Shown here: positions 5,325 through 25,225 of the stretch, one piece after another
How positions within the stretch are numbered: the stretch's first letter is position 1
How the letters are laid out: the number at the start of each line of letters is the position of its first letter
NCBI GenBank assembly: GCA_029060065.1
Contig: JAIDUT010000065.1
Span: 5,148 to 69,147, forward strand
Length of the DNA: 64,000 nt
Origin: Clostridia bacterium
GTDB lineage: Bacteria; Bacillota; Clostridia; Christensenellales; UBA3700
Reading direction: 5' to 3'
The notes under the pieces: generated by a model
Database searches by the model: none
Told to the model about the DNA's origin: nothing
What the model saw: the letters and a program-made list of their open reading frames with translations, nothing else
Program-made: the position numbers and the translations under genes

Positions 5325-5353
5325 TTTGATTCTAAATTTAGGAGGTATGCATA

Positions 5354-5572: not shown

Positions 5573-5603
5573 ATAGATTGATTATAAATGTATAAAAGAA
5601 ATA

Positions 5604-6760: not shown

Positions 6761-9700
6761 ATGAAAGAAAAACTTGCAAAATTGACGGAGATGTTGCTAG
6801 ATACAGGCAAGCGCAACAATCTCATAAATTTCAGGGACAATAAAAGTAATACTTTAGAGGTGGTTTATCCCGATTTCAAAACGCTCTTTCACAAAGCTGA
6901 CGGCAACGTTGTCTTTGAAGTATTTGATCCTCAAATCGATGTGGACGAATTTGAGGACAGAATGAGCGAGGCAAAGCTCAAAGAGAAGTTAAAGGATAAG
7001 TCGCAGTACATAGATAATTACTGCAAGAAAATAAAAAAGGCAAATCAAATTCTTGTCTATAATAGGAACGTTACTCCGATCAAGGCAATGCGTAACGTTG
7101 AGAAGAGGGCAAAGACTGCCATTGAAGAAACTGGCGTAAACATTGCGTATATGGCGTTCGGCTTCATAACTTGGTATGAAGAACAATATCCCGATGTGAA
7201 ATACGATGCTCCGATATTGCTTGCTCCGATAAGTCTGTCCAAGTCGTCGAGCGTCGAACCGTATCGCGTAAAAGTTGCCGGCGACGATATTTTACTTAAT
7301 CCCACCTTTGCCTACAAGTTGCAAAGCGATTACAAGATAGACTTACCCGAATACGATGACGAGGGCATAGACGAATACTTGCAAAAAATCGAGGAAACGG
7401 TTAGCAAGCTCAAATGGCAAGTATCCAAGACGTGCAAGATAGGTCTTTTCTCTTTCTTGAAAATCAATATGTATATGGACCTAAAGGACAATGTCGACGC
7501 AGTATTGCAAAATACCAACGTCAGGTCTTTGTTGGGAGAGGGAAGAAACGCTACCTTTGAGCAGAAACTTCAAGAAGCGCAATTCAACGTAGTCGATGCC
7601 GACTCGTCGCAACTTCGCGCAATAGAAATGGCAAAGGCAGGCGAGAGTTTTGTTCTTCAAGGTCCTCCGGGGACAGGAAAGAGCCAAACTATTACCAATA
7701 TTATAGCCGAATGTATGGGCGACGGCAAAAAGGTGCTTTTCGTATCTGAGAAGCTCGCCGCACTCGACGTCGTATACAACAAACTTAAGCAAGCGGGACT
7801 TGAAGATTTTTGTTTGCAACTTCACTCGCATAAAGCAAATAAGCGAGATTTTATCCAAGAGCTATGCCGTACCATGCGCCTCAGCAAGAGCGGAGTATCT
7901 TCCAAGGCTAGCGAAGAGGAAGATAGATTAAATAAATCTCATATTATACTAGACAATTACGTAGACGTATTACACCGTCAAAACGACGTGATAGGCAAGT
8001 CGCTTTACGAACTTGTCGAAGAAGTTTGCGCGGACGAGGAAATGACAAGGCTGAATTTCTTTGTCGACGATATAGAAAATAAAGGCGAGAACTTTATTAA
8101 GTCCGCCGTTGATATGATAGATAGTTATGCGGAATACACTTCGTCAATAGGCTATGATTATAAGAACAATCCTTGGTACGGCTACATAAATGAAGATAAT
8201 TCGTATCAACAAAAATTCAAGACGCAATCGTCTTTGGAAAGCCTATCCAAAAAGATAGCGCAATGCAATACGTATGCGCAAAAACTCGCTAAAGAGTACG
8301 GCGTAGAGAATATCAAAACTTTGCAAGAACTCGGTTTGTACGCTAAACTGTTGGAGTTACTTGGAGCTTGTCAATATCTCACGGGAAATCTTCTTGACAA
8401 AAAGGCTTTGAGAAGCGTAATCGACAAGGTAATAAAATTACGTCCTATTGCCGACGAAATAAAGACTGTCGGGGATGCAATTAAGACAGACTACAACGAT
8501 GGAATATTCAAACTTGACGCTACGCAAGCAAGTAAAGTTTTGCAAAAGAACAGCGGTGCATTTGCAAGATTATTTTCAAAAGACTACAAGAGCCTTTTGA
8601 ACGAGATCAAAGCCGATAGCAAAAATGGCAAGGCAAGTTACAAAGACGCGTTGGTTTTGATAAAACTTTTGACGGAATATAACGACAAGATGTCGCAGTT
8701 TAGAAAGATAGAAGAGGGTGTCAAAGAAAAACTTTCGTCAAGCTACCACGGAGTAAATACCGACTGGCAGGAGCTTGACAAAGAACTTGCTACGCTGAGA
8801 GATTTGCTAGTCAAGATTGACGATTTCGGCAATCTTATCAATGCATTGGACGGAGAAGATTATTCTTACTACACAGAAGAATTTGCAAGTCTTGCAAAAG
8901 AAATGAGCGACTTACTCTCTAGCGTTGACGGCGAAGAAGTTGTCCAGTGTTTTGATAAAGACGTGTTCGATATTAATTCAACTCCATTTGAAGACGTTGA
9001 TAAAAAACTCAAAAGCTGTATACAGAACTTTGACACGCTTGATAGTTGGAGCGGATTTATTAGCGTATTGAGGTCCATGAACGAAAAGGACCTGACTAAG
9101 TATATTGACGTAGCGGTAAAGGAAGACGTTCTGCCTGCGGATATGTCGGCAGTATTCAAAAAGATATTCTACTCTCAATGGATAGACGTGATTATTCAAA
9201 GAGAAGAGTTTTTGCGCGTTCTGCCAAGAGTTGCGCACGACAAGACAGTGGGTATCTTTTGCGATAAGGATATACGCGGTTTTGAGATAAGCAAAGCCAA
9301 AGTAAGAGCTAAACTGTCGGCGTTGCGTCCCGACTTGAGCCTAGTTGCGCCGGGTAGCGCTGTAGCTAATCTTCTCAACGAGGGCGGTAAGAAGCGCAGA
9401 CAGAAGCCTATAAGGACTTTGATGTCGCAGATAAGAGAACTTGCGCAGAATCTTAAACCGTGCTTTTTGATGTCGCCTCTAAGCGTAAGCACGTTCTTGA
9501 CGCCCGACGTTAAGTTCGACGTAGTAGTATTCGACGAGGCTTCGCAGATATTCCCGCAAGACGCAATCGGCGCAATTTACAGAGGCAGACAGCTTATAGT
9601 CGTAGGCGACAGTAAGCAGATGCCACCTAGCAATTTCTTTACGTCGGTGGTAGAAGTTGACGACATGGAGGACGACGAGGACGTAAAGGACTTTGAATCC

Positions 9701-11329
9701 GTACTTGATTTGTGCTCCACCGTCATGCCTCAACTTAGGCTTAAATGGCACTATCGTAGCAGATACGAACAGCTTATAGAGTTTTCCAACAAGAATTTCT
9801 ATGAAGGCGACCTTGTTACTTTCCCTTCGTCCAAAATTGACAGAGAGGGCATAGGCGTAGATTTCAAGTATGTCGAGGGCGGTGTCTTTGACCATAAGAG
9901 CCGTACCAACAGAGCCGAGGCGGAGTATATTGTGGACTTAATCTTTGAGAATATAGAGAAGTATCCCGACAGAAGTCTTGGCGTAGTCGCGTTCAGTATA
10001 TCCCAACAAGACTTGATAGAACGGCTCTTGGCAAAGAGAAGATTGCAAGATAGCAAATACGAAGAGTTCTTTGCCGGCGACAAAGTCGAACCGTTCTTTA
10101 TCAAGAATTTGGAAACGGTGCAAGGCGACGAGAGAGACACCATTATTTTCAGCGTAGCATACGGTAAGGATAAAGACGGCAAGATGTCGCAAAACTTCGG
10201 ACCTATCAATAAAATGGGCGGAGAGCGCCGTCTTAACGTAGCTTTTACGAGAGCTAAGCTCAACGTTCAACTTGTAGCGTCGATTCACAGTTATGATATC
10301 AATCTCAAGAATTCCAACTCTTTGGGCGCAAGACTTCTAAGAGATTATATCGAGTTTGCGCAGAACGGTTCTACGGACTTTGTTCAAGATATGGCGGAAA
10401 GTGAAGATTGCCAAGCATTTGACTTTGAGATGCAAGTAGCCCAGTTCTTAAGGAGCAAGGGATACGAAGTCGACGTCAAGATAGGCGCATCGGCGGGAAG
10501 CGTGGATATAGGCGTCAAGGCGACGGGCGGTGACGACTACGTATTGGCGGTCGAGTGCGACGGCAGGTCATACAAGAGCGCAAAGAACACTCGCGACAGA
10601 GATAGACTTCGCGCAAGTATTTTGCAGAGAATGGGTTGGCATTATCACAGAGTATGGGCTATCGATTGGATAAAAAACAATAAGGACGAAAAGGACAGAC
10701 TTCTCAAAGCGCTGGAAGAAGCCTTGCAAGCTCCTGGTAACCACATCTCGCAGGAAGTTAATTCATTCGACGTTAATATCGACATGTTCGAGGAGGAGAA
10801 ACTGAGCGTAGACTTCAAATTCTCCGATTACGAAACAGCGGATATTCCGTCAGCCAAAAAGATAAGCAGGGGCGATTATCTCAAATACTTGCGATTGGTA
10901 CTGGAAAAGGAAGCTCCGCTATCCGAAGAACTCTTTTTGAAGAGGACGATACGCGACTTCGATAGAGAAAAACTTACCGACGCGGTATGGGAGAAATTCA
11001 ACAGACTTACTTCAAGATGCCAAAGCGAGGGTATATTCCGTAAGAGCGGATTTATGTATCTCAAAAACAGAGCAGTGGAGCTTCGCTTACCCGGCGGTAA
11101 CTTTGTCCGCGAAATAAAATATATCGCGCCTGAAGAACTTGCTGACGGAATGTATAAGGTTATTTGCAAGAATATCACTGTGGACAGAATGGGACTTTAT
11201 CGAATGCTTGCCAAGTTGCTCGGTTTTACCAAGTTGGGAGAGGCGATGATACGCAGGTTTGACGAAGCCTTGGCGCTCCTAAGAGGTAAAATAGATATAG
11301 AAGGCGAAGAACTTTCAATTCAGGGATAG
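6761..11329 (+). CDS. Large SF1 (Upf1-like) helicase: DUF4011-like N-terminus, split AAA_11/AAA_12 core, PD-(D/E)xK (DUF559/Vsr-like) nuclease domain and DUF3320-like C-terminus
   Basis: Walker A GPPGTGKSQT (about nt 7665). About 590 aa later come VVVFDEASQI, VVGDSKQMPP, TVQGDERDTIIFS and GERRLNVAFTRAK. Nuclease-like block VDIGV...LAVECDGRSYKSAKNTRDRDRLRASILQRMGWHYHRVWAIDW (about nt 10480-10680). Confidence 0.85.
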   Translation: MKEKLAKLTEMLLDTGKRNNLINFRDNKSNTLEVVYPDFKTLFHKADGNVVFEVFDPQIDVDEFEDRMSEAKLKEKLKDKSQYIDNYCKKIKKANQILVYNRNVTPIKAMRNVEKRAKTAIEETGVNIAYMAFGFITWYEEQYPDVKYDAPILLAPISLSKSSSVEPYRVKVAGDDILLNPTFAYKLQSDYKIDLPEYDDEGIDEYLQKIEETVSKLKWQVSKTCKIGLFSFLKINMYMDLKDNVDAVLQNTNVRSLLGEGRNATFEQKLQEAQFNVVDADSSQLRAIEMAKAGESFVLQGPPGTGKSQTITNIIAECMGDGKKVLFVSEKLAALDVVYNKLKQAGLEDFCLQLHSHKANKRDFIQELCRTMRLSKSGVSSKASEEEDRLNKSHIILDNYVDVLHRQNDVIGKSLYELVEEVCADEEMTRLNFFVDDIENKGENFIKSAVDMIDSYAEYTSSIGYDYKNNPWYGYINEDNSYQQKFKTQSSLESLSKKIAQCNTYAQKLAKEYGVENIKTLQELGLYAKLLELLGACQYLTGNLLDKKALRSVIDKVIKLRPIADEIKTVGDAIKTDYNDGIFKLDATQASKVLQKNSGAFARLFSKDYKSLLNEIKADSKNGKASYKDALVLIKLLTEYNDKMSQFRKIEEGVKEKLSSSYHGVNTDWQELDKELATLRDLLVKIDDFGNLINALDGEDYSYYTEEFASLAKEMSDLLSSVDGEEVVQCFDKDVFDINSTPFEDVDKKLKSCIQNFDTLDSWSGFISVLRSMNEKDLTKYIDVAVKEDVLPADMSAVFKKIFYSQWIDVIIQREEFLRVLPRVAHDKTVGIFCDKDIRGFEISKAKVRAKLSALRPDLSLVAPGSAVANLLNEGGKKRRQKPIRTLMSQIRELAQNLKPCFLMSPLSVSTFLTPDVKFDVVVFDEASQIFPQDAIGAIYRGRQLIVVGDSKQMPPSNFFTSVVEVDDMEDDEDVKDFESVLDLCSTVMPQLRLKWHYRSRYEQLIEFSNKNFYEGDLVTFPSSKIDREGIGVDFKYVEGGVFDHKSRTNRAEAEYIVDLIFENIEKYPDRSLGVVAFSISQQDLIERLLAKRRLQDSKYEEFFAGDKVEPFFIKNLETVQGDERDTIIFSVAYGKDKDGKMSQNFGPINKMGGERRLNVAFTRAKLNVQLVASIHSYDINLKNSNSLGARLLRDYIEFAQNGSTDFVQDMAESEDCQAFDFEMQVAQFLRSKGYEVDVKIGASAGSVDIGVKATGGDDYVLAVECDGRSYKSAKNTRDRDRLRASILQRMGWHYHRVWAIDWIKNNKDEKDRLLKALEEALQAPGNHISQEVNSFDVNIDMFEEEKLSVDFKFSDYETADIPSAKKISRGDYLKYLRLVLEKEAPLSEELFLKRTIRDFDREKLTDAVWEKFNRLTSRCQSEGIFRKSGFMYLKNRAVELRLPGGNFVREIKYIAPEELADGMYKVICKNITVDRMGLYRMLAKLLGFTKLGEAMIRRFDEALALLRGKIDIEGEELSIQG

Positions 11330-11357
11330 GAATAAGGTTTGCATAAAATTCACTTTT

Positions 11358-11375
11358 TGCGAATAAATATTCAAT
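11358..11375. promoter_or_regulatory. Candidate ARG box (ArgR/AhrC operator)
   Basis: TGCGAATAAATATTCAAT matches the 18-nt ARG-box consensus TNTGAATWWWWATTCANW at 17 of 18 positions. A weaker half-match (TGCATAAAATTCA) lies 5 nt upstream. Confidence 0.4.
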
Positions 11376-11493
11376 TATACGCTTGAAATTGCATAATATG
11401 CATAAATATACATATAAATGAAAATTTATGCAAAAATTATCGATATAAAGCATAAAAATAGCGAAAAAAACAAAAATTTGTGTATAAAAATAC

Positions 11494-11522
11494 TTGCATG
11501 CTTAACAAATCGGTGTTAGAAT
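11494..11522 (+). promoter_or_regulatory. Promoter (TTGCAT-17-TAGAAT) for the amino-acid ABC operon
   Basis: Hexamers at 11494-11499 and 11517-11522. Confidence 0.45.
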
Positions 11523-11555
11523 AAGAATACGATAAATTTATAAGAGGTTTATATT

Positions 11556-12440
11556 ATGAAAAAGAAAGTTTTAATAGCTCTTTTAGTAATTGCAATCGTA
11601 GGCGTAAGCTGTATGGCATTCGCAGGTTGCGACGGCAATGGAAAAGAGTTCGATAATCTTAACAAGAGTGAAATCAAAGTCGGATACCAGACCGGTACGA
11701 CAGGACAGTTCTACACAGAGGAGTATGATAATTTAACTCCTAAGGACTATACCAACGCAATGCTTGCCGTACAAGATATGGTCAACGGCAGAATAGATTA
11801 CGTCATAACCGATATTGCTCCCGCAAAGGCCATTGCTTCCACAAGAAGTATGAAAAAGAAAGTTAAAGTAATAGACATCGGATTGACTGAAGAAGAGTAC
11901 TGCTTTGCAATCAACCCCAACGATACTAAGGGTATTAAGGAGAAACTTAACAAGTTCTTAAGCGATAATGCCAATAAATTAAAAGAACTTCAAAATAAGT
12001 ATATCCAAGGTACCAATGAGAAAAAGATTATCTATTCGGCAAAGAATCCTACCAATCCTTTGACTGTCGCAACAAGCGCAGACTTCCCACCGTTTGAGAA
12101 CGTAAGCGGAGACGGCTATGAGGGATACGACCTTGAAGTTATGGCTATGTTCTGCGAAGCGTACGGATTTGATTTGGTAATCAACAATATGGAATTTGAG
12201 GCAATCGTACTGGACGTAAATCAAGGAAAGTCAGATATAGGCGCGGCAGCAATGACTTGGAATGAAGATAGAGCAAAAAGCGTAAAATTCTCTAATTCTT
12301 ATTATGACGCAACGCAAGTAATTATCTGCTTGAAAGGTGACACTACATTTGATAATTGCAAGACAAAAGATGACGTAGAGAAGATATTGAAAATTCTTGC
12401 TACGGGCGCAAAAAACGAAACTGTTAGCGGACAAGAATAA
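11556..12440 (+). CDS. Polar amino-acid ABC transporter substrate-binding lipoprotein (SBP_bac_3-like, with segments in permuted order)
   Basis: Lipobox FAGC. The lobe-2-like segment IKVGYQTGTTGQ...VNGRIDYVITD precedes the normally N-terminal segment LTVATSADFPPFE...GYDLEV...MTWNEDRAKSVKFSNSYY. Confidence 0.75.
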   Translation: MKKKVLIALLVIAIVGVSCMAFAGCDGNGKEFDNLNKSEIKVGYQTGTTGQFYTEEYDNLTPKDYTNAMLAVQDMVNGRIDYVITDIAPAKAIASTRSMKKKVKVIDIGLTEEEYCFAINPNDTKGIKEKLNKFLSDNANKLKELQNKYIQGTNEKKIIYSAKNPTNPLTVATSADFPPFENVSGDGYEGYDLEVMAMFCEAYGFDLVINNMEFEAIVLDVNQGKSDIGAAAMTWNEDRAKSVKFSNSYYDATQVIICLKGDTTFDNCKTKDDVEKILKILATGAKNETVSGQE

Positions 12441-13153
12441 TGTCGATAGATTTGAAAGAATCGTGGGAGATATTCCACACTGAATTCGTAGTTAATCGCG
12501 GATATACGAGGGTGTTGAGCGGATTGCAAAGCACCCTCATTATTGCCGTCTTGGGACTTATTATCGGTATAGTCTTGGGTACGGTACTTGCCGTCACAAA
12601 GGTTATACCGCAGAAGAGCAAAAGCGCAAAAGTTTTTTCTCACTTGACTGATATCTACGTTGGGCTATTCAGAGGCACGCCTATGGTAGTTCAATTACTT
12701 GTAATGTACTACGTACTGTTTCCGCTCATAGGACTTGCCAAAATTCCCGCGCTTACAGTGGCAATTATGGCTTTCGGTATGAACAGCGGTGCATACGTCT
12801 GCGAGATAATGCGTAGCGGTATACTATCCGTTGACAAAGGTCAAATGGAAGCCGGCAGAGCCTTGGGTATGAGTTACGGCAGAACTATGCTAAAAGTAGT
12901 TATACCTCAAGCCGTCAAGAATATACTTCCCACGCTTGGCAATGAATTTATATCCCTTGTCAAAGAAACGTCTGTGGTTTCTTTTATCACCGTAATCGAT
13001 TTGACAAAATCATTCCAGCAAATCGGCTCGGCTACATATGAGTACTTCATACCTTACATAGTGCTTGCGCTTTGTTATTTGGTAATAGTCTATATAATTA
13101 CGCTTGTCGTAAAATTGATTGAAAGGAGAATGAGAGCAAGTGACAGAAGATAA
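12440..13153 (+). CDS. Polar amino-acid ABC transporter permease (HisM/GlnP type)
   Basis: EAA-like loop [23 protein letters not shown], multiple TM segments, TAATG overlap with the binding-protein gene. Confidence 0.9.
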
Positions 13154-14195
13154 ACAAGTTATGCCTAAAGAACTTGTCTACGTGTCCGACGATATAGTCA
13201 ACGTGGGCATCGGCGTAGTAATAGACGTGCAGAATATCTACAAGTACTTTGGAGCTCTTAAGGTGCTCAACGGCATCTCCTGCTCAATCAAGAAGGGCGA
13301 GAAAGTGGCGATTATAGGTCCGTCGGGTAGCGGTAAGAGTACTTTGCTCAGATGTATGAACTTACTTGAAGAACCTACTTTCGGCGAGGTATGGCTTGAC
13401 GACAGTATAATTACTCCAGTTGACCCGTATCTTCATAAGAGTATACTTACAGCTTCCAATACGTATAAAAAGCTCATTGTCGAAGAGATTAAGAAGATAC
13501 TCAACAAGTCCGAAAAAGACAAGCTCAAATATGAGGAAGCAATCAAGAGCGTTGATAGAGATACCCTTGAAGAACTTTCCTACAAGGTCTTGGAGCAAAT
13601 TAAGTCGCAAGATATGCTCAAAAAACGCGAGGGCGTAGCATTTAACAAAGCTATCAAGGCTTATCGCGCTAGATACGGCGTGAATATCAACAAGGCAAGA
13701 CAGCGCGTTGGTATGGTATTCCAACACTTTAATCTTTTCAACAACCTAACGATATTGCAAAATATGATTCTCTCTCCGGTCGGGCTTAAACTCAAGAGTA
13801 AAGAAGAGGCTACGCAAAAAGCGTTGAAGCTATTGGAGAGAATAGGACTTCTTGACAAGAAAGACGAATACCCGTCCAAACTTTCCGGCGGTCAAAAGCA
13901 GAGAGTGGCTATTGCCAGAGCTCTCGTTATGGACCCCGAAGTAATGCTATTTGACGAACCTACTTCCGCGCTCGATCCCGAAATGGTCGGGGAAGTGCTT
14001 GCTCTTATCAAGGATTTGGCAAACGAAGGAATGACAATGGTTATCGTCACTCACGAAATGGGCTTTGCAAAAGAGGTCGCCAATAGAGTGCTTTTCCTCG
14101 ACGGCGGAAATATCGTAGAAGAGAATACCCCCGAAGAACTCTTTAACAATCCGCAGAACGAAAGACTTAAAGACTTTTTATCTAAAGTATTGTAA
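13140..14195 (+). CDS. Polar amino-acid ABC transporter ATP-binding protein with a roughly 85-aa insertion
   Basis: Walker [11 protein letters not shown]-loop [10 protein letters not shown], signature [15 protein letters not shown], Walker [12 protein letters not shown]-loop VTHEM. 351 aa against roughly 240-250 typical. The start is ambiguous (GTG 13140 or ATG 13161). Confidence 0.9.
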
Positions 14196-14210
14196 TCCTC
14201 AAACCACCTA

Positions 14211-14252
14211 TTCATTTCGACTGAAGTGTAGCGGAATGGAGAAATCTCAAAC
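14211..14252 (+). repeat. Dispersed small repeat, copy A (TTCATTTCGACTGAAGT...GAGAAATCTCAAAC)
   Basis: Shares TCATTTCGA..GAAGT and GAAATCTCAA blocks with the 49053-49084 copy. Begins 16 nt after a stop codon. Confidence 0.6.
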
Positions 14253-14343
14253 TTATTCTTATAATGATTGTTAATTTTTTATCAAATTTTAGCGTTATTT
14301 TTACAAATTTCCAAATTTTGGTGCAAGAAAATTAAAAATTACA

Positions 14344-14372
14344 TTGACAATACTAAGTTTTGTATGTTAAAT
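14344..14372 (+). promoter_or_regulatory. Promoter (TTGACA-17-TTAAAT) for the giant surface-protein operon
   Basis: Hexamers at 14344-14349 and 14367-14372 in an AT-rich region. Confidence 0.45.
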
Positions 14373-14429
14373 TAAGATTGTATAAATTTATTTATATTAG
14401 ATTTTCTCAAACATTCAGGAGGGGGATTT

Positions 14430-17400
14430 ATGAAATTAACTAAAGGACGCAAGGTTACAGCGTTTGTCACGTTGTCAATTATGCTCGTCGCAGTAGTTAC
14501 TACGGCATGCTTATTGGCGGTGCCTATTGGGGGGGTATCACCCAATAATACATATGAGGCACCGGATTTTGTAGCGCCGATAAGCACGGCAATCGGTGAT
14601 GATAATCTTAAAATTGCTAAGGCAAGTTATACTTCGTCTAACTCATCGATAGTTTATATAGATTTTTATAAACAAAGCGGTAATTTAATTAAAACTTATG
14701 ACTATGGTTATGCGAGAATGCTTATCCCCAATACCATCTATATAGATAAGTCGGAGAACTTGTCAGACGCGCAGTATTATATTGCTTACGATACTTACGC
14801 AAAGTCAAATAATCACGACGGAGATAGGGTAGAACTCTTTGATAACCTCTTTGGTCTTTTTACTGGTACAACAAAACCCGGTGAAAACGATGACGTAAAT
14901 ACTATGCATAGAATGTTTGACGGTTACGGAACAGGTATTAGAGAGGCTATATTTGGGTCGCCGGATTCGGTATTGTCGTGGACGGCTACAGGACCATCAG
15001 GAGTAAAAACTAACAATTCAGTAACCGAAATAGAAGCTAGAGATAAGCGCATTACCACTATAGTAACACTTAGCGGAAAACCGGCAGATAAGTATCAAGC
15101 AGGTGGCGCGGATGCCGATTATAGTACGACAGGTAAAACAGGCACCTTTAGACATGGAGATAATTCATATACCTTAGGTTTCACAAAATATAAGAATTTT
15201 GGTAGTTGGCCTACCGTCATGACTCAAGATTATTTCGGTGATTGGGAGCATAACGGTGGCGCTAAAGGCTCCGGCGCTTTTAACGGCGGTACATCTGCCT
15301 CTACGGGTATAGTCGTACCTTCTTTTGAAGATGACAATATGTACGTTAAGTATCCTGAAATTAACGTATGTATTTACGATAAGTCCGAGTTATTCGCTAC
15401 AATCAAAAAATTCGAAAATAAAGCTTTACTCTCCGAATTGAACGGAGGAAATAATTCCGCTTACGATAGAGCTCAAGCGTGGCTTATTGCTGAAGGTAAA
15501 AAAGCATTTGAGGATGCAAAGTCTGTTTTCACGACGAGAGAAGTTTCTCAAGAAGTTATAAACAGCGCTACTGCAAAACTCAATGAATATATATTTGAAC
15601 TTGAAAGAGTTCAAGAATCCGAGATTCAGAATATGTCAAAGATTTATGACGATAGTACAATCCGCGCAGAAGATATTAAGACTATTGAAGGCTGGGAAAG
15701 ATTTGATTCTAAGTATTTCAATATCAAATTTTTGTTCGTAGTTGAGAATGGAGATAGCACTACATATAACGAGGTAGAGTATATCAACAAAGTAGGCACT
15801 TACGTTATTCAAGTTTCTCCTAAGAAAGAAGCTATTATGATTAACGGTGCGCAGTGGAAATTCTGTTGGACCGGCGACGGCGATCAGTATGAGTATATTT
15901 CAATAGGCTCTTTGATGGTCGGCAATGTTAAGTTGGTCGTCTCTAACGTAATGGCTACTGTAGAATTGCCTTACAAGAATTCCAACTACAGTATTACTTT
16001 TGCATCGATAGCGCCGGACGTAAACTATAACGGTAGCGGAACTGCTTCCGGTGGCGAAAAAAATAAGTATTTCCCTAATTTGTATGATGGCAACGTAGCT
16101 AAAGTTAAGTTATCTTTAGACGGAACCAACTATAATAGTGAATTGGTTCAAATGCAAAACATAGGAGATACGATAGTATATTACGAAGTCTCTTCCGACC
16201 CTAACTACGATCCTGTTTACGGTCAATTTACCGTATCAATCAAGCCGGCTGAGTTGACTTTGTCTTTTAGCGAAGTTTCGCAGATTTACGGCGATGCCAA
16301 GATGGATGCCGGTGACATCGTTGCTACAGGCAAGGTTTCGTGCGAAGCCAACTCCACGGAAGATACTACTTGGGCAAACGCGCTACTTAGTCAAATCTTT
16401 ACTTTGCGTGTCGGCGCGTCAGGCACTGTTTATAATGGCAAAGAATACTTGGATGCCGGCAAATACGATATTCTCGCTGTTGTCAACACAGAATGGCAGA
16501 ATAGAGTATCGGCTACCGTAAAATACAAAGATGACAACAACATCGGCGCATATGTAGTAAATGCTAAACCTGTTCATATCACTTGGTCTAATACCTCGTC
16601 TTACTACGACGGTCAGACCGGTCATAGATCGGTTGCGAACGTCGCTACGAGCGAATTGGTGGCTAAAGACCAGGCAAACAACTTGACGCTTACGCCGACG
16701 GTAAGCCTCAAAGACGGCGGTTCGGTAGTTTCAGCCGGCACTTATGACGTAAAAGTAGATTTTCATAATAGTAATTATACTTGCACTGACGAAGAGCTTG
16801 CGAACGGCGCATTTACAATCAATCCTCGTCCTATCTCGGTGACTTTATTCGACCGCAATAGAACGTACGGAGAAGGCGATTCTGCAAGCGTAACTTGGAG
16901 TAATTATCTTAAAAATTTCGATTCTACTATCGACGTTGACGGAGTATTTTCAACTGTTTTAGCTAATGGTTTGAACGATGGCAAAGCTCCTCTCGTAGAC
17001 CTTGCGTCCTCTATATTTAAGTTGAGTATCGGTACTACTGCGGACGACTATACTTCGGGTGACAGCGCTGATCCGACATTTGTAGCCTCTGATAGATATT
17101 TCAAGGTTAACGAAAATACGGGTTATGTTTTGACCATAGAACTTATCGACAGTGACAACAGTAATTACGTATTGGTAAACAGCGTTAGCGCTAAACTCTA
17201 CGTTCATCCTGCTAAAATTCTATTTACAGAAACCAGCTTGGAGTCTAAGTCTTACAACGGCGCAGAGCAAACGATTGCCATCGACAATGATAAGTTGAAA
17301 GCGAGAATGAGCGGTTACGAAAAAGCCAACTATGACACGCTTTTTGCCAACGGCGCGATCAAGGCTGAGTACAAGGTAGACGCTCCGTCTGCTTATGCAA

Positions 17401-20400
17401 CAAGCGGATATACTACCGATTTGAAGTTAAAACAAGCTACTACTTATGAAATAAGCTATAAGATTACTGCTCCTAACCATGAGGTTAGAGAGGGTAGCGT
17501 TAGAATACAAATCAATGCCGTAGACGTCTATATTGATTTTACTCCTTATGACGGCGCTCGTTACGGCGATGCAATACCTGATTCCGATACGTTGAAGAGC
17601 TTACTCAAAGTCAAGTTCTATTCATCGGCTGATAAGGCAAGCGAATTTGCATTTGCTGACGAGATATCTGTCAGATTGCTCGGCGGTGGTGGCGGTGACG
17701 ACACGCTTTACGGCGACAAAGTAACACCGGGTTCTTACAGCGCGTCTTACGTTCGTGACGCAGTTGTTGAAAATTACAATGTTCGCTATACGAGCAGAAA
17801 TGGCGCGGACAGCAATATTAACGTATATACTATAAAGCAAAAGGAATTGCATATTATATGGAAACAAACAGGCGCAGGCTGGGAGAGCGACGGCTTGACA
17901 TTTACATACAACGGTCACGCGCTTTCGGTAGAACCTGTTGCTGATCCTGCAGATATAGTATCGGGAGATTCCATCACTCCTGCTGAACCTACTTGGGATA
18001 AATCGGGCGGTAATGTAGGAACTTATAAGGCTACGACTTCTCTGTCTACGCAACTTAACAGAGAAAAATATACTATAGTCAACCCAACGCAGGAATTTAC
18101 TATAATTCCAAGAACTATTAAAGTTCGAATCAAGAACCAAACGGCTACTTACGGCAATGCTAGCACTGTACCGTTGGGAACTTCCTTAATCAATCCTGAC
18201 AGCGCTGACGCGCTTTGGGGCTACGATAGCGGATCGCTTCAGTTTGTAAACGGTGAGTATACCAACTTCAAACTTACTTCCGACGCGCAAAATCCGACAG
18301 GCGAAGCAAAATACGTTGATGTAGGCGATTATGATATTATTGTTGAGGCTGTGACCAAAGGTAGCCAAGCAGATCAAAACTACACCTTTGAAATCGTAAA
18401 AGACGGCGTAGAGGGCGAGAGTGGTTTCAATGCTACGTTTAGCATTACTCGCGCTACTATTCACTACACCGGTAGACAGTTCAATATCAAATATGACTTC
18501 GCGGATACGTCTAATAATACTGAAAAAAATTACGTTACTCAAAATCAAGTAAGAGCAAGAATATCTACGACTGTAGGTACTCCTACAAGCGAATTTAATA
18601 TTGAGATGACTAATTTGGTTCCTTGGACCGCAGAACTTGATGGCGTGGACGGTACGTACGGTGATACTCTTGGTTGGAATGAAATTGAGGAGACAGCCCC
18701 TGCGACAGCCGTTGGTCTATATTATCTATTTGTTAAGATCACGCACGAAACCAACTATGAGACGTTCTACTCCAAGATAGAAGTAAATATCCAAACCGAT
18801 TGGGTATCCATTACTATCATTGGCGACGGTATCAAGGCTAGTTACGGTGAAACGACGCATTCTTCCTCTGCAATTTTCCAAGAGTTGAAGGAACAAATCA
18901 CTTATATTGGCGGAATTGTGAATACTGAAACAAATCAAGAAGCTGACCGTGACTACGCTTTGAAAAAACTCGAAGAATACGTAAACAACAATCAGATTGA
19001 GTTCTTCGTAGGTATGGGCGATACGATTACCCAAATGACGACCAATGGTGACTTTGGCGACTATTCAATCTTTATTAAAGTGTTGGATAGCAGTCTGAAT
19101 ACTTATTTCCGTTTCTTGGACGAGAAGAACGAGTCGGGTACTGATAAACCTACGACTAATATCAACAAATATCACGTTGGTAAGAGAGTCGTCCAAATGA
19201 ATTGGGGCAAGGACGGAAGCATGGACGAAGTTTACGGCGCTCACAGCGACTCGTTGACCGATCCAAGCGCAAGTCACATCTATAGCGTTAAAAATCCAAT
19301 GCCCGGAGATAACGTTCGTGTAACCGTAACGTATCTTAAGAAAGAAAATGGAGTATGGGTACCATTACCTCAAGGCGAGCACACGCTTGAAGTAGGCGAG
19401 TATCTTGCAAGAGTTACCGCAGTATCTCACGACAATTACGAGGTACCGACTGGAGACGGAAACTGGCTTGAGCAAAAGTTCGAAATAACCAAAAAGTCGT
19501 TGACTATTAAGTTAATGGATCGCAATGATTTGAGTTATGGTGCTCCAAATGCTACTAAAGACAATATAAATAATTTCCTCAATGTGCAAGTTGCAGGAAT
19601 CACGCGTTATAACATACTTAACGGTGATACCTTTGCATATGACGATACTGTTACAGACGTGTTTAGGTTCGCTCTCGACTTTACGCTAGAAAGCGGTTAT
19701 ACCTACTTGCACGCAGGCGATTATACAATTACCTACGATAAGAGCTTTGTCAATCCTAACTATGACATTACGTTCCAAGAGGGTACGTTTAAGATAAATA
19801 AAGCTTCGGCTGACAACGTGCACTACACTCAAGCTCAACTCAATAACGTGACGTACAACGGCAAGAACTTCTCGCTCATTCAAGATGATATTTTAGACCG
19901 TATAACGTTGATTGGCGACGGCGTTAAATTGCTCAACGCATATCAAGCAATTAAGTTCTATTGCAGATTGCAAGGCGATACGGACTTCACTGAGAACCTC
20001 AGCGTAAAGGACGCAAAGACTTACACAGTTGACATAAAGATAGAAGCTCCGGATCACGAAGTGCAAACCATTACTGGAATCAACTTCACGATTCAGCAAG
20101 CTGTCGTTAAAATTTCTATGACCCAAACCGATAAGACTTACGGCGATACCCTCGCTGATATGCTTAACAAGGCTGGTTTGAGTTCTACAAGCACTTTGAA
20201 CGATTGGCTGAAGAAGAAGTGTAATATCAAACTCAGCTACACAGGTACGATTGAAGGCATCAACGAAGACTTTGAATTCATAGTAATTGACAGCGCTGTC
20301 GATCCTGATAATCTTACAGGCGTGACCCAACTTGTGCCTGGTACTAGTCACAACGTTGGCACGTACAGAGTATATGTCAATATTGATAAGCTCAACGGCA

Positions 20401-22919
20401 ACTATTCATTCGACTTCGAGCAAAAGGCAGGCGCAACCTTTAAGTGTAACGCTAATGCTTATCGCATCGTTCCAAGAGACGCTCAAGTTACTTGGAAGTC
20501 GGACAGTGAGGTTGTTGTAAGTGGCAACTTTAAGCCGGAATACACAGGCGCGCCAATCGTGCTTGCTCCGTACGTAACGGATATTGCTGATAATCAAGAG
20601 AAACAACTTGACGCTACCGGTAGAAATACCAATGTTGGCGCAGGTACGGCAAAAGTATCGGTAGATAAGACTAATGCAGATAATTTGTGGATGAACAATT
20701 ACAACTTCATTGGTGATACGTTCAATTATGAAATCCTACCTAAGAGCGTTAAAGTTACAATCAATGACCTTAGCGTTGGCTATGGACAAGAAGAATCTAA
20801 GCGTAGTTTCTGGGTAGATTTGAACGACGTTAATAGATTTACTTCCGATACTCAATTAATAGGTTCGCCTATCAGATTGTTTGTCAACGCTTCGACCACT
20901 AAAGAGTATCTTGGCGCAACGACTTATACCATTCAAGGTAAATGTAACTCTGATAACTATAAAGTAGAGTTCACAACGGGAACGCTGACAATAACTCCCG
21001 CTGACATCAATAACAACAATGAGAAGTCGCACTCTCAACCTTACAACGGCGGTGACTTTGTTGCCAACGTTAAGCAACTTTTGATTGACGGCAACTATTA
21101 TACGCTTGCCGGAGATATGACTTGGAATGACGCAACAGTAACGTATAACGTTGCAGACGCGACCATACAGGGCATTGGCACTAAAGAAGTAGAATATACA
21201 ATTAAACTTGCCAACCACGTAGATATCAAAGGCACGATTGAGATTGCGGTAACGCAAGCATTACTTGTAGCCAATGTTACCAAGGGCGCAAGTAGCGTAT
21301 ATGGTAGCAAAGTGCTCTCGTCAGCTCAATTGTTCAAGTACGTAACTTTGGATACAGACAATTCGACTTTGACTACTGTCAAGCTTGATTCGATTATCAG
21401 ACTCTCTGTAAATGTTGACGATACTTACAGCGATAGGTTGCTTAACAGAGGTTCGTATTCTTTAACTTACGAGTGGTTAGATGAGAGTTACAAGGCTTTG
21501 TATAACATAAGATTAAACAACAATGTAATCGGCGTATACGAAGTAACTCCAAAAGCAATCTCGTTCGTATGGAATTATGATGAAAATACCAAGTTTGTAT
21601 ACAACGGCAGTGGACATCGCGTAGAAGCTGTATTCAATGGCGTTATCAGCGATGATGATGTTAAGATTGGCTACTACAATAATGCGTCGGCAGTTAATGC
21701 AGGTACTTATAAAGCTTCCGCTCAGGGACTTATCGGTGAGGACAGTAGCAACTACGAGCTAGACTCTACGTCGACGCTTGAATGGAGAATATGGCCAAAA
21801 GAGATAGACGTTGAGTGGACCGCAGGTGACTTTACCTACAACGGCGCTCCTCATACCAGCGCTATTCAAAAGATGGCTGCCGCTAAGACAAGCGATTTGG
21901 TTGCAGGTGACGTTTGCGGAATTAACGTCAACGTTGAGTGGGACGATAGAATCTATGCAGGTAAGCATATGGCTGAGGCTAGTAGCACTAATCCAAACTA
22001 TGTTGTAAAAAAAGCTACTGCTACCTTCGAGTTTGAAATCAAGAAGGCTATGATTTATATCACTTGGAGCGATGACGTATTGTATTACAATGGCGAGCTT
22101 CAAGCTCCAAAGGCTATGATAGAAGGCAATCAGCTTGTTGCAGGTGACGTTTGCAACATTACCGTAGAAGGCGCTCAAAGGAACGTTAAGACCAGCGGTA
22201 ATTACGTCGCTACGGCTACTATAGACAATCCTAACTATGCTGTCGTATCAAGTAGCGCTTCCACAGCGTTCAACATAGCTCCTAAGGCTATCACCTTCAA
22301 TTGGGATGGCACTAATACCAACCTTATATATATCGGCGCTCCTCAAGCTCCTAGACCCAATGCTATAGGCTTAGTTGCGGGAGATGAAGTCGAGTTTGCA
22401 TTCGACGGTATGCAAGAGAACGTCGGTAAAGATTATATTGCTACGGTGACCGGCATAAAGGGCAACGCTAACTACGTAATCGACTGGGATAGCCAGACCG
22501 CTGTTGCGACTGTTACGTTCTCAATCGGCAAGGGCGTCAACGGATTCAAGGAAGAAGGATTCAAACTTCCTGCAATTCTTGATAAATTGCCTTGGATAGA
22601 CAGCGCTCCTGAAGTTAAGTTCGGTCAAGATAACCTTGTTGTCAAGTACTATTCTGACAAGAATTTGACTAAAGAAGTAACGAATATTGATAAAGCTGGC
22701 GAAGGTAAATACTGGGTTACGGTATTCGTAGCAGGTACTGAAAACTATGACGACTTCTATCAAGTATTTGAAGTTGAAGTTCAAGGTAACTTGAATATAG
22801 CAATCATTATCTTGGCTTCTGTTGCATCGGTACTATTGCTCGCAGGCGCTTTGATAGTAGTTCTTACTACCAATAAGTCCGGCAAAAAGAATAAACAAGA
22901 AGAAGGAGGCGCTGAATAA
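14430..22919 (+). CDS. Giant (2,829 aa) cell-surface protein: N-terminal signal/anchor, a roughly 600-aa non-repeat head, about 20 MBG-type (YG.. / YNG / YDG) repeat modules and a C-terminal TM anchor
   Basis: Hydrophobic N-terminus VTAFVTLSIMLVAVVTTACLLAV. Recurrent modules such as I.P..L.(V/I)....(Y)YGD/YGE/YGN and ...YNG...(P) occur from about nt 16230 to 22500. C-terminal TM IAIIILASVASVLLLAGALIVVL plus a basic tail. No LPXTG motif seen. RBS AGGAGGGGG. Confidence 0.85.
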   Translation: MKLTKGRKVTAFVTLSIMLVAVVTTACLLAVPIGGVSPNNTYEAPDFVAPISTAIGDDNLKIAKASYTSSNSSIVYIDFYKQSGNLIKTYDYGYARMLIPNTIYIDKSENLSDAQYYIAYDTYAKSNNHDGDRVELFDNLFGLFTGTTKPGENDDVNTMHRMFDGYGTGIREAIFGSPDSVLSWTATGPSGVKTNNSVTEIEARDKRITTIVTLSGKPADKYQAGGADADYSTTGKTGTFRHGDNSYTLGFTKYKNFGSWPTVMTQDYFGDWEHNGGAKGSGAFNGGTSASTGIVVPSFEDDNMYVKYPEINVCIYDKSELFATIKKFENKALLSELNGGNNSAYDRAQAWLIAEGKKAFEDAKSVFTTREVSQEVINSATAKLNEYIFELERVQESEIQNMSKIYDDSTIRAEDIKTIEGWERFDSKYFNIKFLFVVENGDSTTYNEVEYINKVGTYVIQVSPKKEAIMINGAQWKFCWTGDGDQYEYISIGSLMVGNVKLVVSNVMATVELPYKNSNYSITFASIAPDVNYNGSGTASGGEKNKYFPNLYDGNVAKVKLSLDGTNYNSELVQMQNIGDTIVYYEVSSDPNYDPVYGQFTVSIKPAELTLSFSEVSQIYGDAKMDAGDIVATGKVSCEANSTEDTTWANALLSQIFTLRVGASGTVYNGKEYLDAGKYDILAVVNTEWQNRVSATVKYKDDNNIGAYVVNAKPVHITWSNTSSYYDGQTGHRSVANVATSELVAKDQANNLTLTPTVSLKDGGSVVSAGTYDVKVDFHNSNYTCTDEELANGAFTINPRPISVTLFDRNRTYGEGDSASVTWSNYLKNFDSTIDVDGVFSTVLANGLNDGKAPLVDLASSIFKLSIGTTADDYTSGDSADPTFVASDRYFKVNENTGYVLTIELIDSDNSNYVLVNSVSAKLYVHPAKILFTETSLESKSYNGAEQTIAIDNDKLKARMSGYEKANYDTLFANGAIKAEYKVDAPSAYATSGYTTDLKLKQATTYEISYKITAPNHEVREGSVRIQINAVDVYIDFTPYDGARYGDAIPDSDTLKSLLKVKFYSSADKASEFAFADEISVRLLGGGGGDDTLYGDKVTPGSYSASYVRDAVVENYNVRYTSRNGADSNINVYTIKQKELHIIWKQTGAGWESDGLTFTYNGHALSVEPVADPADIVSGDSITPAEPTWDKSGGNVGTYKATTSLSTQLNREKYTIVNPTQEFTIIPRTIKVRIKNQTATYGNASTVPLGTSLINPDSADALWGYDSGSLQFVNGEYTNFKLTSDAQNPTGEAKYVDVGDYDIIVEAVTKGSQADQNYTFEIVKDGVEGESGFNATFSITRATIHYTGRQFNIKYDFADTSNNTEKNYVTQNQVRARISTTVGTPTSEFNIEMTNLVPWTAELDGVDGTYGDTLGWNEIEETAPATAVGLYYLFVKITHETNYETFYSKIEVNIQTDWVSITIIGDGIKASYGETTHSSSAIFQELKEQITYIGGIVNTETNQEADRDYALKKLEEYVNNNQIEFFVGMGDTITQMTTNGDFGDYSIFIKVLDSSLNTYFRFLDEKNESGTDKPTTNINKYHVGKRVVQMNWGKDGSMDEVYGAHSDSLTDPSASHIYSVKNPMPGDNVRVTVTYLKKENGVWVPLPQGEHTLEVGEYLARVTAVSHDNYEVPTGDGNWLEQKFEITKKSLTIKLMDRNDLSYGAPNATKDNINNFLNVQVAGITRYNILNGDTFAYDDTVTDVFRFALDFTLESGYTYLHAGDYTITYDKSFVNPNYDITFQEGTFKINKASADNVHYTQAQLNNVTYNGKNFSLIQDDILDRITLIGDGVKLLNAYQAIKFYCRLQGDTDFTENLSVKDAKTYTVDIKIEAPDHEVQTITGINFTIQQAVVKISMTQTDKTYGDTLADMLNKAGLSSTSTLNDWLKKKCNIKLSYTGTIEGINEDFEFIVIDSAVDPDNLTGVTQLVPGTSHNVGTYRVYVNIDKLNGNYSFDFEQKAGATFKCNANAYRIVPRDAQVTWKSDSEVVVSGNFKPEYTGAPIVLAPYVTDIADNQEKQLDATGRNTNVGAGTAKVSVDKTNADNLWMNNYNFIGDTFNYEILPKSVKVTINDLSVGYGQEESKRSFWVDLNDVNRFTSDTQLIGSPIRLFVNASTTKEYLGATTYTIQGKCNSDNYKVEFTTGTLTITPADINNNNEKSHSQPYNGGDFVANVKQLLIDGNYYTLAGDMTWNDATVTYNVADATIQGIGTKEVEYTIKLANHVDIKGTIEIAVTQALLVANVTKGASSVYGSKVLSSAQLFKYVTLDTDNSTLTTVKLDSIIRLSVNVDDTYSDRLLNRGSYSLTYEWLDESYKALYNIRLNNNVIGVYEVTPKAISFVWNYDENTKFVYNGSGHRVEAVFNGVISDDDVKIGYYNNASAVNAGTYKASAQGLIGEDSSNYELDSTSTLEWRIWPKEIDVEWTAGDFTYNGAPHTSAIQKMAAAKTSDLVAGDVCGINVNVEWDDRIYAGKHMAEASSTNPNYVVKKATATFEFEIKKAMIYITWSDDVLYYNGELQAPKAMIEGNQLVAGDVCNITVEGAQRNVKTSGNYVATATIDNPNYAVVSSSASTAFNIAPKAITFNWDGTNTNLIYIGAPQAPRPNAIGLVAGDEVEFAFDGMQENVGKDYIATVTGIKGNANYVIDWDSQTAVATVTFSIGKGVNGFKEEGFKLPAILDKLPWIDSAPEVKFGQDNLVVKYYSDKNLTKEVTNIDKAGEGKYWVTVFVAGTENYDDFYQVFEVEVQGNLNIAIIILASVASVLLLAGALIVVLTTNKSGKKNKQEEGGAE

Positions 22920-24988
22920 TGATAACCTTGATAAGTGCGCTTAACCTTACGGCAAAAATCGGCATAAGCATTGCAGTTTTCGTAGTGCTTATCGCCGTAG
23001 AAGTGTTGGCATTGGTTATGCTTGTTAAATGGAAAAAGAATTATAAGCAAGCTCTCATTAAGAAAGCAAAGGAAGATAAGAGAGATGCAGAGTTGGCGAA
23101 TAGCAAGCCTGTGACGGCTATAGATTTGTCACAAGAGCATGCAGAAGTAAATACTGTCGAAAATACGGCAGTAGAAGCGTCCGAAGATAAGCAAGACGAA
23201 AAAGCTGAGGATAAAGCTGTAGCAAATGAAACTGAAAACCAAGTTGTATCTAAAGAGCAAGATAAGGTTGTTGAAGAAGAAACTTCGACAAATGAGAAAG
23301 AAAGCGAAGAAGTAGTCTCTGAAGAAAAGCAAGACAGCGTAGCTGACGCTACAAAGGCATTTGCTTTCGCTCCGCTTTTCATGTGGGGCGCAACCACAAC
23401 AGCTATGACTTTGAGAGGTTTCTTGTACGTATTGATAGGTATAGCGGTAGCGCTTGCAGTAGCTGTATTTGCTACGGCAGTAATATTCTCTCAAAATCTA
23501 AAGCATGGTTTAGACGAGCTTGAAGAGGACGTGCCGGCTAAAGACCCGACTATAGTTAAAAAGCCTGAAGAAGAGCCAATGAAAGAAACTGAAGAACCTG
23601 TAGCTGAAGAAAAAGTATCGCAAGAACCTGTAGTTGAGGAAAAACCTGTCGAAGAAGAAATCGCAGAAGAGGAACTCACCGCAGAAGCTGTTGAAGAAGT
23701 TCAAGAAGAGCAACCTGCAGAAGAAGAGGCTGTTGCTGAAGAAGAGCCGATAGTAGCGGAAGCAGAGCCGGCTGTTGCTGAAGAAGAGCCTGTTGTGGAA
23801 GAGCAACCTGTTGTTGAGGAGAAGCCTAAGCCCGCTCCTGTCAAGAGAGAGCCTAAACCAAGAGAGAGAGCTGTCGTTATTGACAATGTTTCATACATGA
23901 TGAAAGACGATAGATTCCTGTTCAATCCTACGGACGACGGTTGGTACATACTTCTCACCAAGACTTTTACGGCAAAACTTATTCAGTCTGACGAGTACGT
24001 CAAAGATTATTACACTGAGTTGAAGAATGAATTGCTTTCTTACAACAAAGTTCATGCAAGAATGAGCAAAAAGCGTGAGAGTTTCAACTTCGGTCGTACG
24101 TGCTTGGCGCGTCTGTCGATAAGAGGTAAGACGCTTAGATTACACCTTGCTCTCGACGCTAACGATTATGCAGAAACCAAGTATATAGTTGAAGATACAT
24201 CGCAGACCAAGTCGCTTGCAGATACTCCGCTTATGTATAGGATCAAGAATGATCGCCGTCTTAAGTATGCAAAAGAGTTGATTGCTACGCTCATGGAAAA
24301 AGTAGGAGCGGTAAAACAAGAGATTGAGCCTGTCAACTATACGGCAATGTATCCTTACGAAGAGACCGAGCCATTGATTGAAAGAGATCTTATCACTCGT
24401 AGATTTGTCAAGGGTAAGGTTCCGGAGGATAAGGGATTTGACTTTGCGCAAAAGACCTTTAAGGCAAAACTTATTCAGTCTGACGATGCTGTCAAAGAGT
24501 ACTATTCTAAGGTAAAGAATCACTTGCTTTCTTACAAGAAGATTCATGATAGATTGAGCAAAAAGCGCGAGACCTATCGCTTTGGTAGAGTTTGCGTTGC
24601 CCGCATGGCAATTAGAGGAAAGACCTTAAGACTGTACCTTGCGCTTAATCCGGCAGACTACGTAGATACTAAGTACATAGTAGAGGACTTCTCGCACGTT
24701 AAGTCAGTCGCAGACACTCCTCTTGCAATCAAGCTCAAAAACCCGCGCCGTCTAAAGTACGCAATGGAATTGATTGACGCGACTATGGTAAATATGGGCG
24801 TAGTTCATAAGCGTGATATTATTGATACCGACTATACGTCAGATTTGGCTTACGAGAGTACTGAGGAATTGATGGAGAAGGGACTTGTCACCAACGTACA
24901 CGTGAAGGGTAACTCTTTCGTAGCTCAACACTTCTCGTTCAAAGAAAAAGACGCTGAGGACGAAGTAGCTTCTGACGAGGATAAATAA
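22919..24988 (+). CDS. Membrane protein (689 aa) with acidic and PE-rich linkers and two tandem copies of an unrecognised, roughly 130-aa basic domain
   Basis: Start overlaps the upstream stop (TAATG). RBS GAAGGAGG. TM1 near aa 15-37 and a hydrophobic hairpin near aa 160-205. E/P/V-rich linker from about nt 23560 to 23880. Duplicated block F.AKLIQSD...YY..(L/V)KN.LLSY.K.H.R.SKKRE.(F/Y).FGR.C.AR..IRGKTLRL.LAL...DY..TKYIVED.S..KS.ADTPL..K.KN.RRLKYA.ELI. Confidence 0.7.
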   Translation: MITLISALNLTAKIGISIAVFVVLIAVEVLALVMLVKWKKNYKQALIKKAKEDKRDAELANSKPVTAIDLSQEHAEVNTVENTAVEASEDKQDEKAEDKAVANETENQVVSKEQDKVVEEETSTNEKESEEVVSEEKQDSVADATKAFAFAPLFMWGATTTAMTLRGFLYVLIGIAVALAVAVFATAVIFSQNLKHGLDELEEDVPAKDPTIVKKPEEEPMKETEEPVAEEKVSQEPVVEEKPVEEEIAEEELTAEAVEEVQEEQPAEEEAVAEEEPIVAEAEPAVAEEEPVVEEQPVVEEKPKPAPVKREPKPRERAVVIDNVSYMMKDDRFLFNPTDDGWYILLTKTFTAKLIQSDEYVKDYYTELKNELLSYNKVHARMSKKRESFNFGRTCLARLSIRGKTLRLHLALDANDYAETKYIVEDTSQTKSLADTPLMYRIKNDRRLKYAKELIATLMEKVGAVKQEIEPVNYTAMYPYEETEPLIERDLITRRFVKGKVPEDKGFDFAQKTFKAKLIQSDDAVKEYYSKVKNHLLSYKKIHDRLSKKRETYRFGRVCVARMAIRGKTLRLYLALNPADYVDTKYIVEDFSHVKSVADTPLAIKLKNPRRLKYAMELIDATMVNMGVVHKRDIIDTDYTSDLAYESTEELMEKGLVTNVHVKGNSFVAQHFSFKEKDAEDEVASDEDK

Positions 24989-25006
24989 TTATCCATTAAT
25001 AATCAT

Positions 25007-25036
25007 AAAAGACGGAGATTTCTCTCCGTCTTTTTT
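25007..25036 (+). terminator. Rho-independent terminator after the two-gene surface operon
   Basis: AAAAGACGGAGA-tttc-TCTCCGTC followed by T6. Confidence 0.75.
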
Positions 25037-25225
25037 ATTTTCAATAAGTTGTATTTTAAGCGAAGTCAAAGACTGTATTATTTATTTCTAAGTGATTTCT
25101 AACTTAGCCAAGTGCAGTTTTGAAATTTATATCGCTTAGTATTCGACAAAAATAGTCTATATTTTATTTTATACGCTAATTCTATCTAACGGTTTTACTT
25201 TATAATGCCATAGAAGGAGAGTTTT

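Follow-up and report, generated by a model that had tools for sequence, protein, structure and literature searches.

A run of seven G residues (G7) near the 5' end of a gene encoding a giant exported protein (positions 14529–14535, + strand) is probably an incidental or very recent, lineage-specific weak slippage hotspot, and not an evolved and conserved switch. The window in which it was found, the whole stretch of Clostridia bacterium DNA that we analyzed, is 64,000 nucleotides long. The initial annotation had presented the tract as a candidate slipped-strand phase-variation switch, and its location invites that reading: the gene codes for a surface protein with a fast-diverging head, and a place right after the export signal is a classical one for translational phase variation. 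Runs of 7 bases do, moreover, undergo slipped-strand mispairing. We considered the tract in its gene, in the orthologous genes and against the codon usage of its surroundings.

The G7 tract within the giant gene

The giant gene encodes a protein of 2829 aa and extends from an ATG at 14430 to a TAA ending at 22919 (14430–22919, + strand). Upstream, a consensus scan predicted a sigma-70-type promoter (TTGACA-18 nt-TAAATT with a TG upstream; 14344–14373, + strand), which is kept in the orthologues. A Shine-Dalgarno sequence read directly from the DNA, CAGGAGGGGG (14416–14425, + strand), ends 4 nt before the ATG, and its GGAGGG is likewise kept in the alignment of the orthologues. The first codons (14430–14525, + strand) encode a conserved putative N-terminal export signal, MKLTKGRKVTAFVTLSIMLVAVVTTACLLAVP, in which a basic n-region is followed by a hydrophobic core of ~23 residues, the product starting with MKLTKGRK-VTAFVTLSIMLVAVVTTACLLAV-P. 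This signal is identical at 26 of 29 residues to that of L002/L004, and a similar N-terminus is found in all family members. A lipoprotein signal was considered, as TTAC resembles a lipobox, and is unlikely since Cys27 is replaced in P0006, P0010 and P0027.

Beyond the export signal, the giant protein consists of a hypervariable head (~residues 33–700), a long stalk made up of weak MBG-like repeats, a C-terminal transmembrane helix and a Lys-rich tail. Searched as a whole, it has no match in Pfam (E ≤ 0.01), NCBIfam or PDB sequences. When it was divided into 500-aa pieces, one of them matched MBG_2 with 28.9 bits against a cut-off of 25, and the scores for YDG (21.3 bits) and MBG_3 (18.7 bits) both stayed under the cut-off of 25; no MBG match was obtained in the orthologues P0005, P0007 and P0010. 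An AlphaFold model of the head, based on a 2-sequence alignment, was unusable (mean pLDDT 36). The layout and the domain scores point to a repeat-rich exported protein with divergent MBG-like repeats; the name "adhesin", which the initial annotation had given it, expresses an assumption about its role. The genes around it are ordinary chromosomal ones and include those for ABC transporters, a DUF4011/MTES_1575 helicase, a ParA-like ATPase and RNase E/G. No Rfam family was found in the window.

G7 lies in the local context ...GCG GTG CCT ATT GGG GGG GTA TCA CCC AAT..., in which codons 34–36 of the giant ORF read GGG GGG GTA and encode Gly-Gly-Val. Counting runs and translating the ORF bore out both the position of the tract at residues 34–36 and its rank as the longest G/C run in the window: it is the sole run of at least 6, with none of exactly 6 and seven others of 5, among them the G5 runs at 4998–5002, 28998–29002 and 32828–32832. 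Two details of the earlier description need qualification. The window had been called AT-rich, which is correct in direction but only mildly so in degree, the G+C content being 42%. The tract had also been assigned to a signal-anchor coding region; it does lie just 3' of the hydrophobic core (residues 9–31), but the anchor label is not established.

The consequences of slippage were as originally proposed, with a TAG 13 codons on after the loss of one G and a TAA 4 codons on after the gain of one. Translation of the shortened tract reads ...PIGG-YHPIIHMRHRIL-TAG, with a stop at codon 48 and a 47-residue product, and that of the lengthened tract reads ...PIGGG-ITQ-TAA, with a stop at codon 40 and a 39-residue product. 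The homopolymer thus lies within the reading frame and among the early codons of a gene for a giant exported protein, and a one-unit change in its length is enough to switch the frame and to end translation fast in either direction, as in a slipped-strand phase-variable gene. This canonical frame and position, with early stops after either shift, speak for a true contingency locus, in which selection would maintain G7 and the giant protein would be ON at G7 and OFF at G6 or G8, switching at a useful rate. The gene downstream may then switch too via polarity, and the population may thereby evade phage, antibodies or other pressures on its surface in the gut. Weighing these points against those that follow from the orthologues, codon usage and tract length, we consider a contingency locus unlikely; the switch is a legitimate candidate, but one to which the comparative data lend no support.

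Two other mechanisms were set aside. Programmed frameshifting or transcriptional slippage at G7 was rejected by inference, as the alternative frames end within 4–13 codons and encode nothing conserved. An invertible promoter was rejected as well: the sole inverted repeat nearby is AT-rich, spans 25 nt and is 72% complementary, and no recombinase was seen among the seven ORFs at 6761–26014 or the twenty others at 421–6353 and 26516–50382.

The length of the tract itself could in principle be an error of sequencing or assembly, the true length not being seven. Homopolymers are error-prone and the two assemblies with G7 may share the same reads. However, the 2829-codon frame is open just with G7 (or G7 plus or minus 3), this frame matches the orthologues on both sides of the tract, and the same length was obtained by two assemblers, which makes an error extremely improbable.

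Orthologues and the border of the hypervariable head

By genome scanning and exhaustive searching with HMMER, we recovered seven distinct orthologous genes, encoding proteins of ~2800–2950 aa (L003, L004/L002, L006/L007, L008, L009, L010 and L011). Several of these loci also have the window's neighbor genes, and one of them comes from an 'uncultured Christensenella sp.' MAG. Within the first 400 nt, none of the seven displays a G/C run of at least 6 or an A/T run of at least 8. A tract equivalent to G7 thus recurs in 0/7 of the homologous genes; the sole long run among them, a G8, belongs to the L009 gene, at nt 6801. The closest relative (L006/L007; 41% identity) retains Pro-Ile-Gly at this place and writes it CCT ATC GGT TCT. 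In the alignments, L002, L003 and L004 are without the whole 21-nt (7-codon) segment ATT GGG GGG GTA TCA CCC AAT that carries the tract (14526–14546, + strand). No frameshifted allele was found in the giant-gene family as sampled. One apparent truncated homologue (P0001, 371 aa) was discarded, its stop arising from the inverted chimeric contig end in L002, an assembly artefact.

We then compared the window with the syntenic locus L004. In blastn, the nucleotide identity is 84.7% from 8467 to 14525 and collapses there, 4 nt before the tract. At the protein level, the three upstream transporter proteins are 92–97% identical, the head (residues 33 to ~700) aligns with many gaps at 12–48% identity, and identity rises again to ~80% in the stalk. 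G7 sits at the transition from the conserved part (flank, promoter and signal peptide) to the hypervariable head. Because homology to L004 breaks at 14525 and the head is only 12–48% identical, the tract belongs to an indel-rich, fast-diverging segment; because no orthologue has it, it is specific to the window's lineage. G7 thus appears to be a by-feature of the indel-rich border of the hypervariable head domain.

A head that diverges far faster than its flanks is what would be seen for a target of diversifying selection, and in this respect the comparison also favors a contingency locus. Against such a locus stands the absence of the tract from all seven orthologues, none of which has gained one elsewhere near the 5' end. 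In the initial annotation, orthologues lacking the tract while keeping identical flanks, with no frameshifted alleles, were named as an outcome that would refute switching. What we found corresponds to this outcome in part: the upstream flank is kept, the tract is absent from 7/7 and there is no frameshifted allele, but the downstream flank is not conserved. The comparison therefore shows that the tract is young and lineage-specific, not that it is stable.

The exact giant protein is deposited as MDE6472288.1 ('Clostridia bacterium' MAG) and is also encoded on an identical Logan contig from SRR14411251, so that the 5' end of the gene is known from one sequence version, that of the window MAG and of this contig (L001). 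The contig of a second strain, GCA_029051665.1, is 99% identical and begins at codon 402, downstream of the tract region; over the 2428 codons shared with the window, it shows 39 differences that are synonymous, 20 that are non-synonymous and none that disrupts the gene. The near-full-length product of an OFF allele would fall in the 90% identity cluster of the protein, and among the two members of this cluster there is no truncated or alternative-start product. Scanning the JGI metagenomes with peptide and DNA patterns returned no related sequence. A word-index protein search gave a single distant match and missed P0003 despite a 99-residue overlap with the query, and its negatives are therefore weak. 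Overall, no other tract length and no frameshifted allele were found in the reachable public data, which hold one version of the 5' end; read with that scope, this too weighs against a contingency locus.

Chance expectation and codon usage

Is a G7 tract unexpected in this DNA? In the window sequence, G runs become rarer by a factor of ~0.12–0.15 with each extra G. Markov models of order 1 to 4 predict 0.8 to 0.15 G runs of at least 7 per 64 kb, for one observed, and 0.23 such runs are expected when synonymous codons are permuted gene by gene over 38 likely genes. Given these expectations, a single G7 in the window is not significant, and a genome of a few megabases would contain several such runs by chance, 5–10 being expected per 2.5 Mb.

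The codons of the tract are nevertheless unusual ones for their gene. GGG is the rarest Gly codon, accounting for 3.7% of the Gly codons of the window and for 3 of the 215 in the giant gene, and the tract contains two of these three side by side. In the window's genes, just 1 of 102 Gly-Gly dipeptides is written GGGGGG, GGC GGT being used 42 times. More generally, these genes show strong avoidance of G/C runs of at least 5: 4 are observed where synonymous shuffling predicts 15, making them four-fold rarer. When the giant gene was recoded with the codon usage of the window, 1.3% of trials produced a run of at least 7 at some place in the gene (P 0.013), and 0.14% produced one within the first 300 nt (P 0.0014). 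Note that this test was framed after the tract had been seen, and its result is therefore suggestive at most. The over-representation of G7 thus differs by scale, from unremarkable in the window to the post hoc values of 0.013 for the gene and 0.0014 for its 5' 300 nt. Rare GGG GGG codons in a place where G runs are otherwise avoided, and codon-aware probabilities of this order, argue for a contingency locus; the anomaly is, however, post hoc and is gone at the scale of the window.

The same two codons could also have been kept for coding or for fold, as a Gly-Gly hinge after Pro-Ile that would break a helix directly outside the membrane segment, or as an RNA hairpin (AUUGGG...CCCAAU) that may influence how the signal sequence is translated. 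All through the family Pro32 is kept, and Pro-Ile-Gly is shared by the closest relative; in addition, the 21-nt segment reads as an imperfect palindrome in which ATTGGG pairs with CCCAAT, as it also does in the predicted fold. However, Gly-Gly could be encoded by common codons, as the frequent GGC GGT illustrates, it is absent at this place in most orthologues, and the predicted 5' fold is not significantly stabler than shuffled sequence (z = −1.8). We therefore regard maintenance for coding or fold as very unlikely.

Operon partner, slippage rate and known systems

The gene downstream (22919–24988, + strand), whose start overlaps the stop of the giant gene, encodes a membrane protein of 689 aa that has two repeated domains in its C-terminal part and an acidic linker rich in Glu/Pro. 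It is followed by a hairpin and T-run, AAAAGACGGAGATTTCTCTCCGTCTTTTTT (25009–25036, + strand), which was read directly from the sequence and is the probable intrinsic terminator of the two-gene operon. The start/stop coupling described initially was confirmed: the partner's ATG takes its A from the end of the giant gene's TAA (TAATG), an overlap of one base. The claim built on it, that an OFF state could silence the downstream gene, is weakened. The partner gene has its own AAGGAGG 8 nt upstream of its start, and AAGGAGG or GGAGG is present 6–9 nt before the partner ATG in every orthologue. In L010, the giant gene ends upstream of the partner Shine-Dalgarno, leaving a 15-nt gap before the partner start and no overlap. 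The partner follows the giant gene in every orthologue that reaches that far, with a length of 705–784 aa where it is complete (L006, L007 and L009), the other partner genes running off the locus or contig end. Judged from these signals, the partner is probably able to initiate translation alone. As its Shine-Dalgarno is conserved, co-silencing is not built in, which also counts against a contingency locus; an OFF state could silence the partner only through transcriptional polarity or through decay of an mRNA left untranslated for 8.4 kb, neither of which follows from the overlap. That G7 is a recently evolved, working switch of this two-gene surface operon in a Christensenella-like gut commensal seems to us decidedly unlikely.

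The incidental hotspot that we favor would operate as follows. In the host, an uncultured member of the gut Clostridia and a relative of Christensenella, G7 is a young homopolymer at the junction of export signal and head. The gain or loss of one base as the tract is replicated would leave a product of 39 or 47 residues, and slippage in the opposite direction would restore the full protein. Assuming that mismatch repair is present, we infer a slippage rate of ~10−8 to 10−6 per generation, which would be well over the base-substitution rate and under the ~10−5 or more of classical contingency loci; without MutS/MutL, the tract would be much less stable. G7 can thus yield rare reversible null mutants, presumably with no selection for switching.

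If G7 switches, simple-repeat phase variation of surface proteins reaches an abundant uncultured lineage of gut Clostridia, the locus offers a handle on when display of the giant protein is costly, and a contingency locus would have been caught at birth, at the border of a hypervariable head. If it does not, which is more likely, the case is one for caution: a lone homopolymer of minimal length, with neither conservation nor length polymorphism, is not evidence of a contingency locus. The boundary at codon 32 is more informative than the tract, as it separates a conserved promoter and export signal from a head at ~25–30% identity, the neighbor proteins being at 92–97%. The phase switching known from gut commensals occurs mostly by DNA inversion, and we know of no description of repeat-driven phase variation in the Christensenella-like group. 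The mechanism at G7, if present, would then be of a known kind in a new host.

Among known systems, the giant protein itself resembles the giant MBG-repeat proteins of Firmicutes (MBG_2 PF18676, YDG PF18657, MBG_3 PF18887) in being very long and repeat-rich with an N-terminal export signal and in having one segment over the MBG_2 cut-off. It differs from them in that it has a C-terminal transmembrane helix instead of an LPXTG or S-layer-homology anchor, a head without recognizable family, no family match when scanned whole, and other repeats that stay under the cut-off.

As to the tract, the poly-G/C tracts of Campylobacter jejuni and Neisseria (PhasomeIt; PMC6321876, PMC5953494) are alike in being intragenic G/C homopolymers in surface-related genes, with ON/OFF control by frameshift. 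In contrast to G7, the proven tracts are mostly G8–G13, recur from strain to strain in homologous genes and vary in length within and between isolates. Seven bases is as short as functional tracts get: G7 is the lowest cut-off used for Campylobacter, where such tracts may mutate at <10−5 (PMC6321876), and the cut-off in the Neisseria analysis is G9, with a G7 tract in meningococcal siaD noted as switching (PMC5953494). That G7/C7 tracts switch in other species (siaD, PMC5953494; the Campylobacter cut-off, PMC6321876) is in favor of a contingency locus, and their place at the lower limit is against it, as is the rate of at most 10−6 at which a 7-base tract shifts in a mismatch-repair-proficient Firmicute (PMC2831843).

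This last value comes from the 5' tract of inlA in L. monocytogenes, where A7 shifts to A6 at ~4 × 10−8 and A6 to A7 at 5.5 × 10−7 (Orsi, Bowen and Wiedmann 2010, PMC2831843). The A7 allele is in frame and the A6 allele is truncated at 8 aa, and both occur in natural isolates (PMC2831843). Like the giant gene, inlA is a large surface-protein gene of a Firmicute with a 7-base homopolymer in its early codons; losing one base leads to premature termination and a null allele, a change that is in principle reversible, and some lineages are without the tract (inlA then reads AAGAAAA, and the orthologues studied here have none). The two differ in that the inlA tract is poly(A), lies in codons 3–5 and has documented alleles and rates, whereas the one described here is poly(G), follows the export signal and is known from sequence alone. 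Of these systems, inlA is the closest precedent for G7, and it shows that a tract shifting at a low rate can still matter at the population level.

Divergence of the giant-protein head

Comparison of the giant surface-protein gene with its syntenic orthologue at locus L004 (positions 14196-16500 of the window against 5733-8000 of L004) reveals an abrupt drop in identity at codon 32. The proteins encoded by the flanking genes are 92-97% identical between the two loci; for the giant gene itself, nucleotide identity is ~85-90% over its promoter, its 5' UTR and the part encoding the signal peptide. Beyond this point, the N-terminal head of the protein (residues 33 to ~700) displays just 12-48% identity and numerous indels, before identity rises again to ~80% in the stalk. 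This cliff suggests that the exposed head could be subject to diversifying selection or, alternatively, could have been replaced by recombination.

Apart from the G7 run at codons 34-36 in the window, the sole long G/C run in the giant-gene family is a G8 run, in frame, at position 6801 of the giant gene of orthologous locus L009 (~7024-7031 of the locus; protein P0007, Logan SRR31732369), i.e. ~80% along that gene.

Assembly and search effects on the orthologue set

The segment 2179-2297 of locus L002, at the end of contig CAPMFT010000158.1, corresponds to an inverted copy of sequence located ~115 nt further downstream in L004 and is an assembly artefact. The inverted contig end creates a false stop codon and, with it, the spurious 371-aa protein P0001.

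A word-index homology search with residues 1-500 of the giant protein missed P0003, the protein of a second strain, despite 100% identity over residues 402-500, as well as family members later recovered by an exhaustive HMMER search. The absence of matches in the word-index search therefore counts as weak evidence.

Neighbouring genes and the partner membrane protein

Upstream, positions 6761-11329 encode a 1522-aa protein that carries DUF4011 together with helicase domains of superfamily 1 (AAA_11/AAA_12) and, at its C-terminus, the restriction-endonuclease-like domain MTES_1575. This protein may have a role in defence; its gene is also found upstream of orthologous locus L006. A short conserved intergenic element lies at ~14225-14250, after the ABC-transporter ATPase gene and before the promoter of the giant gene, and reads GTAGCGGAATGGAGAAATCTC in the window and TCATTCTGAGCGGAGCGTAGCGAAGTCGAAGAATCT upstream in L002-L004.

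On the 3' side, a membrane-protein gene (22919-24988 in the window) directly follows the giant gene in all orthologues that reach that far (L005-L011). Its product, assigned by family searches to no recognised family, comprises 689 aa in the window and 705-784 aa in the other loci where it is complete, with an acidic linker rich in Glu, Pro and Val and a domain of ~150-190 aa present in two copies (FTAKLIQSD...GKTLRLYLAL...RRLKYA). In the window and L005-L011, the start of this partner gene mostly overlaps the stop of the giant gene (TAATG or ATGA).
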